From: Escherichia coli
GTDB lineage: Bacteria > Pseudomonadota > Gammaproteobacteria > Enterobacterales > Enterobacteriaceae
Assembly: GCF_024502345.1 (NCBI RefSeq)
Contig: NZ_JALDNN010000001.1
DNA: 64,000 bases
Strand: one strand, 5' to 3'
Shown piece after piece: positions 48,887-48,986 of the stretch. The notes under the pieces were generated by a model that was given only the letters and a program-made list of their open reading frames with translations, ran no database searches and was not told where the DNA came from. Positions within the stretch are counted from its first letter, which is position 1, and each line of letters begins with the position of its first letter. The position numbers were made by a program, and so were the translations under genes.

Positions 48887-48986
48887 TTCAAGAAATTCAC
48901 CTTCTGTGTAAAAATATATTTTAAATCATGCATATACATTATCTCCTGTAGTGAATTTCATCATGTAGTCGAGACGTAACAATCCT

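Follow-up and report, generated by a model that had tools for sequence, protein, structure and literature searches.

A 7-bp tandem-repeat deletion in the type C immunity gene of the Escherichia coli Hcp-ET3-4 locus, a probable recent pseudogene

Introduction

The Hcp-ET3-4 toxin/immunity locus has been described in uropathogenic Escherichia coli (UPEC). According to reviews that relay the work of Ma et al. 2017 (PMC6730261, PMC6099711), the gene UTI89_C0121 encodes a fusion between an Hcp protein and domains of the pyocin S3 and colicin DNase types, and one of them states that the three immunity genes located 3' of it all contribute to toxin neutralisation (PMC6730261). Both reviews mention orphan immunity genes in E. 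coli (PMC6730261, PMC6099711), and orphan cassettes are generally assumed to protect against relatives carrying other toxin variants (PMC6730261). The same locus is found in a 64,000-nucleotide stretch of E. coli DNA (NCBI RefSeq assembly GCF_024502345.1, contig NZ_JALDNN010000001.1), hereafter the window, where one of its immunity genes, the type C gene (48650..48939, minus strand; counterpart of UTI89_RS00625 / WP_000543774), has a broken reading frame. This report addresses the nature, origin, distribution and likely consequences of this lesion. Globally, the sequence data suggest, with a probability of about 0.8, that the gene is a recently inactivated allele, i.e. a pseudogene, of the type C Hcp-ET3-4 DNase immunity gene.

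The array of the window is the published locus and is therefore already known. Like that of UTI89, it occupies the aroP-pdhR site, with the same gene order and the same toxin architecture (Hcp, pyocin-S and colicin DNase domains). The toxin is identical to the UTI89 tssD product at 575 of 593 positions (97%) and the type A immunity protein to WP_000471928 at 94/94, while identity reaches 95/96 for the type B protein, 95/96 for the conceptually repaired type C protein and 61/62 for the 62-aa toxin fragment that precedes it. The window differs from UTI89 in that its type C gene carries a 7-bp deletion and a proline at position 61, and in that its type B cassette is duplicated (698 bp).

More distant relatives of the type C protein include the immunity proteins of colicins E7 and E9 and of pyocins S2 and AP41 (Im7, Im9, ImS2 and ImAP41; PF01320). 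The restored type C protein has in common with them a four-helix fold and the YTE-EF and D-x-I-Y/F-Y-P motifs, but is about 10 residues longer in the loop between helices I and II. Furthermore, the partner toxin is here an Hcp fusion for delivery through a type VI secretion system (T6SS), whereas Im7/Im9-type proteins are paired with released bacteriocins and, unlike the type C product of the window, are not truncated at the position equivalent to Im7 Leu18. The stacking of displaced toxin tips, each with its own immunity gene, 3' of an active toxin is also known from the orphan modules of Rhs/CdiA loci and from the orphan immunity genes of the T6SS (Kirchberger et al. 2017, cited through PMC6730261). 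However, the present locus differs from the orphan modules of other polymorphic toxin loci in that its toxin fragments have a very small size (62-79 aa) and are, in addition, broken.

Reading frame of the type C gene and nature of the lesion

All the features of the array lie on the minus strand, to which the coordinates below refer. The first ATG of the type C gene, in the context AGGAGATAATG, is located at 48939-48937. A preliminary description of this DNA, which did not identify the array as the published Hcp-ET3-4 locus, had recognized this context and placed the ATG at 48939-48941, three positions that read T-A-A on the minus strand; the context is indeed present, but it is not conserved with the sister immunity genes, as had been stated, since these carry AGGAGATAAATATG and AGGAGATAGTTAAATG and AGGAGATAATG is specific to type C. 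The native start is likely the second ATG (48931..48933), chosen by the Prokaryotic Genome Annotation Pipeline (PGAP) in intact alleles, because it fits both the spacing of the family, in which 10 residues precede the YTE motif in 35 of 42 members, and the distance to the Shine-Dalgarno (SD) sequence AGGAG, which lies 9 nt from this codon versus 3 nt from the first ATG. This SD sits in the 3' end of the 62-aa toxin fragment.

As the preliminary description had correctly seen, the frame of the start codon ends at a premature TAG (48871..48873), 22 codons from the first ATG and 20 from the second one, and the Im-like body (..YTEGEFLEMLEEIVNATS..) continues in another frame, which is -1 relative to that of the ATG. 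Upstream, the body frame contains a TGA (48928-48926) followed by no ATG, GTG or TTG until an internal ATG at 48886-48884. The residual open reading frame (ORF), which starts at this internal Met19, thus encodes 78 aa (48650..48886), so that 18 N-terminal residues are lost rather than the 16 or so estimated earlier.

The frame is not broken by the absence of one nucleotide, as had been proposed, only the net frame change having been right. Indeed, alignment with the loci of FDAARGOS_943 and 536 indicates that intact alleles read GATT-TAAAATA-TAAAATA-TATTTT and encode a 96-aa protein (MHDLKYKIYFYTEGEF...). The window retains a single TAAAATA unit (48917..48923) where these alleles carry two tandem units, i.e. 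a 7-bp deletion with a net change of -1. Apart from this gap, its allele is that of FDAARGOS_943 over all 361 nt. A one-nucleotide repair would also restore a 96-aa ORF, yet comparison with the intact alleles indicates that this is not the ancestral sequence.

Proposed origin of the deletion

The two-unit repeat itself appears to result from a point change. The Nissle 1917 allele carries the imperfect repeat TAAAAGATAAAATA, which encodes Asp6, whereas in the lineage of UTI89, 536 and the window, a G to T substitution leading to Tyr6 makes the repeat perfect (TAAAATATAAAATA). The replacement of Asp6 by Tyr would therefore have turned TAAAAGATAAAATA into a perfect 7-bp tandem duplication, TAAAATATAAAATA, and thereby into a substrate for slipped-strand deletion. 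One TAAAATA unit would then have been lost, most simply by replication slippage, which would have shifted the frame by -1 after codon 5. From then on, the native SD and ATG would yield only a nonsense peptide of 20-22 residues, and the Im body would be reachable only from Met19, as a 78-aa product devoid of its N-terminal segment and of the initial half of helix I. Type C immunity would thus be effectively lost, the cognate type A gene and the two type B copies being kept. Since nothing else in the type C body departs from the FDAARGOS_943 sequence, the deletion is recent. More generally, this case suggests that one point change, here the replacement of Asp6 by Tyr, can be enough to generate a perfect repeat of short tandem units and thereby expose a gene to deletion.

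Distribution and lineage of the deletion allele

The deletion was searched with a 131-nt junction probe containing one unit, to which two-unit alleles align over 138 nt. About 1,027 complete E. coli genomes are matched over the full length; none of them has the deletion and all carry two units, since the match spans 138 nt rather than 131. A synthetic three-unit probe likewise revealed no three-unit allele among the complete E. coli genomes. However, the allele is not restricted to the window. The exact 78-aa product, which gene callers produce from the truncated allele only, is recorded for 21 contigs. Among ten loci fetched, eight (L003, L004, L006, L007, L009, L010, L011 and L012) display an identical one-unit junction; of the remaining two, one stops at the type C gene, and the upstream junction of the other is different. 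The eight loci come from different samples and from short-read assemblies made with MEGAHIT, SPAdes or Logan, and the pdhR-side flanks of the deletion carriers are 99.7-100% identical to the window (for L003, 9 differences over about 4,700 positions). The identical junction in eight independent assemblies argues for a real inherited allele rather than a private sequencing error, and for the same reason resequencing is unlikely to restore a continuous ORF, an outcome that the preliminary description had envisaged.

In the collection index, 15,412 blocks correspond to the intact Leu61 allele, 447 to the intact Pro61 allele and 21 to the allele carrying both Pro61 and the deletion. From these sequences, the deletion allele is a rare sub-branch nested in the minority Pro61 lineage, and most simply it would have a single origin. 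Two origins were considered for L003 and L010, which are 1.5-3% divergent, but this divergence is located upstream, in the toxin/cassette region; as the pdhR-side flank of L003 is nearly identical to that of the window, a single origin with upstream recombination is simpler. Dating of the event from a BLAST comparison of intact Pro61 loci with the window was abandoned, as it is confounded by the paralogous cassettes.

Other broken versions of the type C gene (P0082, P0025, P0113, P0002 and others) were considered as possible cases of recurrent decay and set aside. Those inspected, at L014-L017, look like sequencing errors, since they display homopolymer-type frameshifts and neighbouring core genes are fragmented there. 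Several public type C "variants" (76-, 95- and 113-aa products) stem from assemblies that also have homopolymer frameshifts in neighbouring core genes. Length variants of this gene in databases should therefore be treated with caution before being read as biology.

Consequences for the immunity protein

The restored 96-aa protein belongs, over its full length, to the colicin/pyocin DNase immunity family. It matches the immunity protein of pyocin AP41 (4uhp_B) with E = 2.5e-20 and Im7 with E = 5e-18. Its AlphaFold2 (AF2) model has a predicted local distance difference test (pLDDT) score of 87.2, and the top 40 Foldseek matches of this model in the PDB are all Im or pyocin immunity proteins, with query-normalised TM-scores of 0.64-0.84. 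The model displays four helices (I, 13-24; II, 35-53; III, 60-63; IV, 68-86), and Met19, with which the 78-aa ORF begins, falls midway along helix I and corresponds to Im7 Leu18. The PF01320 score falls from 92.2 bits for the restored protein to 73.7 bits for the 78-aa ORF (cut-off, 21.2) and the coverage of the 82-position profile from 2-82 to 31-82; the complete four-helix domain is therefore not encoded in any one ORF of the type C gene, helix I being cut at Met19.

Among 42 homologues, 17 columns are invariant, and three of them (T12, E13 and F16) are part of the 18-residue loss, as are the near-invariant K5, Y11 and E15. The stability of Im7 is just 25.2 kJ/mol, and the conservative changes in IV7T and F15Y reduce it to 10.4 and 14.7 kJ/mol, respectively (PMC2833379). 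Im7 positions 7 and 15 both fall inside the segment deleted from the 78-aa product. Given this limited stability of Im7 and the removal here of the whole segment, this product is predicted, by analogy, to be unable to fold or function independently.

The helix III motif D-L-I-Y/F-Y-P is largely kept (D60, I62, F63, Y64 and P65), but both the window and FDAARGOS_943 have Pro in place of its near-invariant Leu61. The codon of Pro61 in the restored gene is located at 48754-48756, and the residue is equivalent to Im7 Leu53. The Im7 double variant L53A/I54A cannot dock helix III and is trapped as an inactive three-helix state (PMC2706327). Pro61 is nevertheless retained as a side observation only, because the intact allele that carries it is fairly widespread, with its 447 index blocks.

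Alternative explanations

Several observations weigh against inactivation. The type C body bears no further mutation and no sign of decay, although a very recent event would look alike. The internal ATG is preceded, at 11 nt, by an SD-like sequence, AAGGTGA (48903-48897), and termination of the upstream frame takes place 13 nt beyond this codon, so that some 78-aa product could be made. Furthermore, cognate Im-DNase binding is extremely tight, and it is conceivable that a destabilised fragment folds upon binding. The gene might thus still encode a truncated but working immunity protein, made by reinitiation or by a direct start at the internal ATG, the 78-aa product using helices II and III to bind the DNase and conferring partial protection. 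The internal ATG (48886-48884), AAGGTGA and the TAG (48873-48871) are in a permissive geometry, the body ORF is undamaged, and helices II-IV, including the DNase-binding motif of helix III, are kept. However, half of helix I is missing from the fragment together with the invariant T12, E13 and F16, and single conservative changes in this segment cost Im7 40-60% of its total stability; where Im7 has Leu53, on which the docking of helix III depends, the allele has Pro; and, partial or broken calls aside, none of the 120 homologues listed is naturally so short. This explanation is therefore considered unlikely. A more elaborate version, in which the upstream frame of 20-22 codons is a leader that returns ribosomes to Met19 and the 78-aa fragment folds only upon DNase binding, is distinctly improbable; if true, it would mean a low-level, binding-dependent immunity and a helix I dispensable for protection in the Im family. 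Non-canonical initiation upstream of Met19, which the preliminary description had suggested as an alternative to a pseudogene, is not supported, whereas the frameshifted 5' end that it reported stands and the pseudogene is probable. Indeed, in the body frame Met19 is preceded by a single near-cognate codon, an ATA located some 24 nt away from the SD, and initiation at ATA is far below 1% of that at ATG. Rescue by -1 ribosomal frameshifting, which would generate a 94-aa protein (MHDLK-IYFYTEGEF...), is scarcely credible, even though the deletion created a zero-frame heptamer, T_TTA_AAA (48919..48925), that resembles a -1 slippery site, fits X_XXY_YYZ in the correct frame and would give a near-native product devoid of two N-terminal residues only. 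Stimulatory SD sequences for -1 frameshifting lie 10-14 nt upstream, and the GGAG found here, at 17 nt, is outside this spacing. Moreover, no downstream structure is predicted (fold z = +0.56 and -0.39), and the two-frame arrangement occurs in 0 of the about 1,027 complete genomes, being a rare derived allele rather than a conserved one. According to the supplement of Sharma et al. 2014, the -1 frameshifting measured on UUUAAAA in E. coli amounts to just 0.099% when no stimulator is present and reaches only 1.07% when the strong IS3 pseudoknot is added.

The two other explanations concern the deletion itself. A sequencing or assembly artefact, the source genome truly carrying two TAAAATA units, would agree with the absence of the deletion from complete RefSeq E. 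coli genomes and with the homopolymer errors, in assemblies prone to them, that underlie other apparent type C lesions in public data. However, the change is here that of a 7-bp unit and not a homopolymer length error, and the same junction, with matching flanks, is present in eight independent contigs, which makes an artefact very improbable. The heptamer could also be a phase-variable switch, whose reversible change in copy number would toggle type C immunity. Contingency loci classically contain, in the 5' part of a coding sequence, a tandem repeat whose unit length cannot be divided by three, and the type C gene has such a layout. Yet there are only two units, and once one of them is deleted, expansion has no repeat to act on; all of the about 1,027 complete genomes are two-copy, none having one or three copies; and the one-copy carriers are found on a single flank haplotype, which points to a single event. 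Such a switch is just as hard to credit as rescue by frameshifting.

Inactivation of the type C gene by the 7-bp deletion thus remains the preferred explanation. Self-protection should be maintained in the window strain, because the type A gene and the two type B copies are intact, whereas type C protection is, to judge from the sequence, probably lost. A possible cost would be exposure to strains whose active Hcp-ET toxin is paired with a type C protein, such as Nissle 1917. The gene should be annotated as a pseudogene resulting from a 7-bp repeat deletion, rather than as a 78-aa immunity protein or a sequencing error. Beyond annotation, the lesion has little significance. It would be an ordinary knockout, rare and inherited, that affects a redundant orphan immunity gene of an already described locus.

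Organization of the locus

The array lies between aroP (53384..) and pdhR (47430-48227) and consists of the toxin gene followed by PF01320 immunity genes and orphan cassettes. The window is of E. coli origin, its aceE gene being 99.7% identical to that of many genomes of this species. The full-length Hcp-ET toxin (51025..52806; 593 aa), counterpart of UTI89_C0121 (Hcp-ET3-4), combines an Hcp tube with pyocin-S and colicin/pyocin DNase domains (Pfam T6SS_HCP, Pyocin_S and Col-Pyo_DNase). Directly 3' of it, the intact type A gene (50738..51022; 94 aa; PF01320, E = 6.9e-30) presumably encodes the cognate immunity protein. The first copy of cassette B includes an orphan C-terminal toxin fragment (50331..50570), a 79-aa ORF with a frameshifted tail that covers only positions 54-112 of the Col-Pyo_DNase profile, and an intact type B immunity gene (50040..50330; 96 aa; PF01320, E = 6.4e-28). 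The second copy consists of the duplicated fragment (49633..49872), which belongs to the 698-bp tandem duplicate, and of another intact type B gene (49342..49632) whose 96-aa product is identical to that of copy 1. Cassette C begins with a 62-aa ORF matching Col-Pyo_DNase (48987..49175), and the type C gene is located directly 3' of this colicin-type DNase gene fragment, as expected for PF01320 immunity genes.

The tandem duplication of cassette B, i.e. of the toxin fragment and its type B immunity gene, extends over 49307-50702 with a period of 698 bp, and its copies differ by one core mismatch only (49368 versus 50066). A single cassette B is present in UTI89, 536, FDAARGOS_943 and four other intact loci. 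The copies are collapsed or gapped in the short-read assemblies that carry the deletion allele, so that cassette B copy numbers in these carriers are unreliable.

All the orphan DNase fragments (48987-49175, 49633-49872 and 50331-50570) are broken. The type C fragment stops at a TAA (..DIDN*) where the full toxin has Leu, and the tail of the type B fragment is frameshifted (..DIDNLRRAHLICMMKFITGDS). The defects of both are shared with UTI89 and are therefore old.

The cassette types are ordered C-A-B in Nissle 1917 and A-B-C in UTI89. In Nissle 1917 (locus L013, 2281-5735), type C directly follows the full-length toxin and precedes types A and B. The toxins of this strain and of the window are 96% identical over the first 455 aa versus 79% over the last 135 aa, a case of polymorphic toxin tip with cassette shuffling. 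The type C immunity gene of the window is 95% identical to the first immunity gene of Nissle 1917. However, the view of cassette C as a displaced Nissle-type toxin tip is not supported as such, since its 62-aa fragment is only 52% identical to the Nissle tip versus 77% to the toxin of the window.

The last ~100 nt of the immunity genes are near-identical in DNA across the three types (PENILKIVKEWRRSQGLPLFKDS; 48650-48740, 49342-49440, 50040-50140 and 50738-50840). Protein identity goes down to about 60% in the helix II/III region. Recombination or gene conversion between cassettes could take advantage of these near-identical ends. Just 3' of the type C stop codon and before the promoter region of pdhR, an inverted repeat, AAAATCATCAC...GTGATGATTTT (about 48600-48632), may be a terminator, although it was not called in the consensus scan; the counts obtained by the promoter and terminator scans were not above those of shuffled sequence. 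Outside the array, in the pdhR-aceE intergenic region, the sole Rfam match of the window corresponds to the tp2 small RNA family (47272-47385, plus strand; 103.9 bits, E = 3.8e-18).
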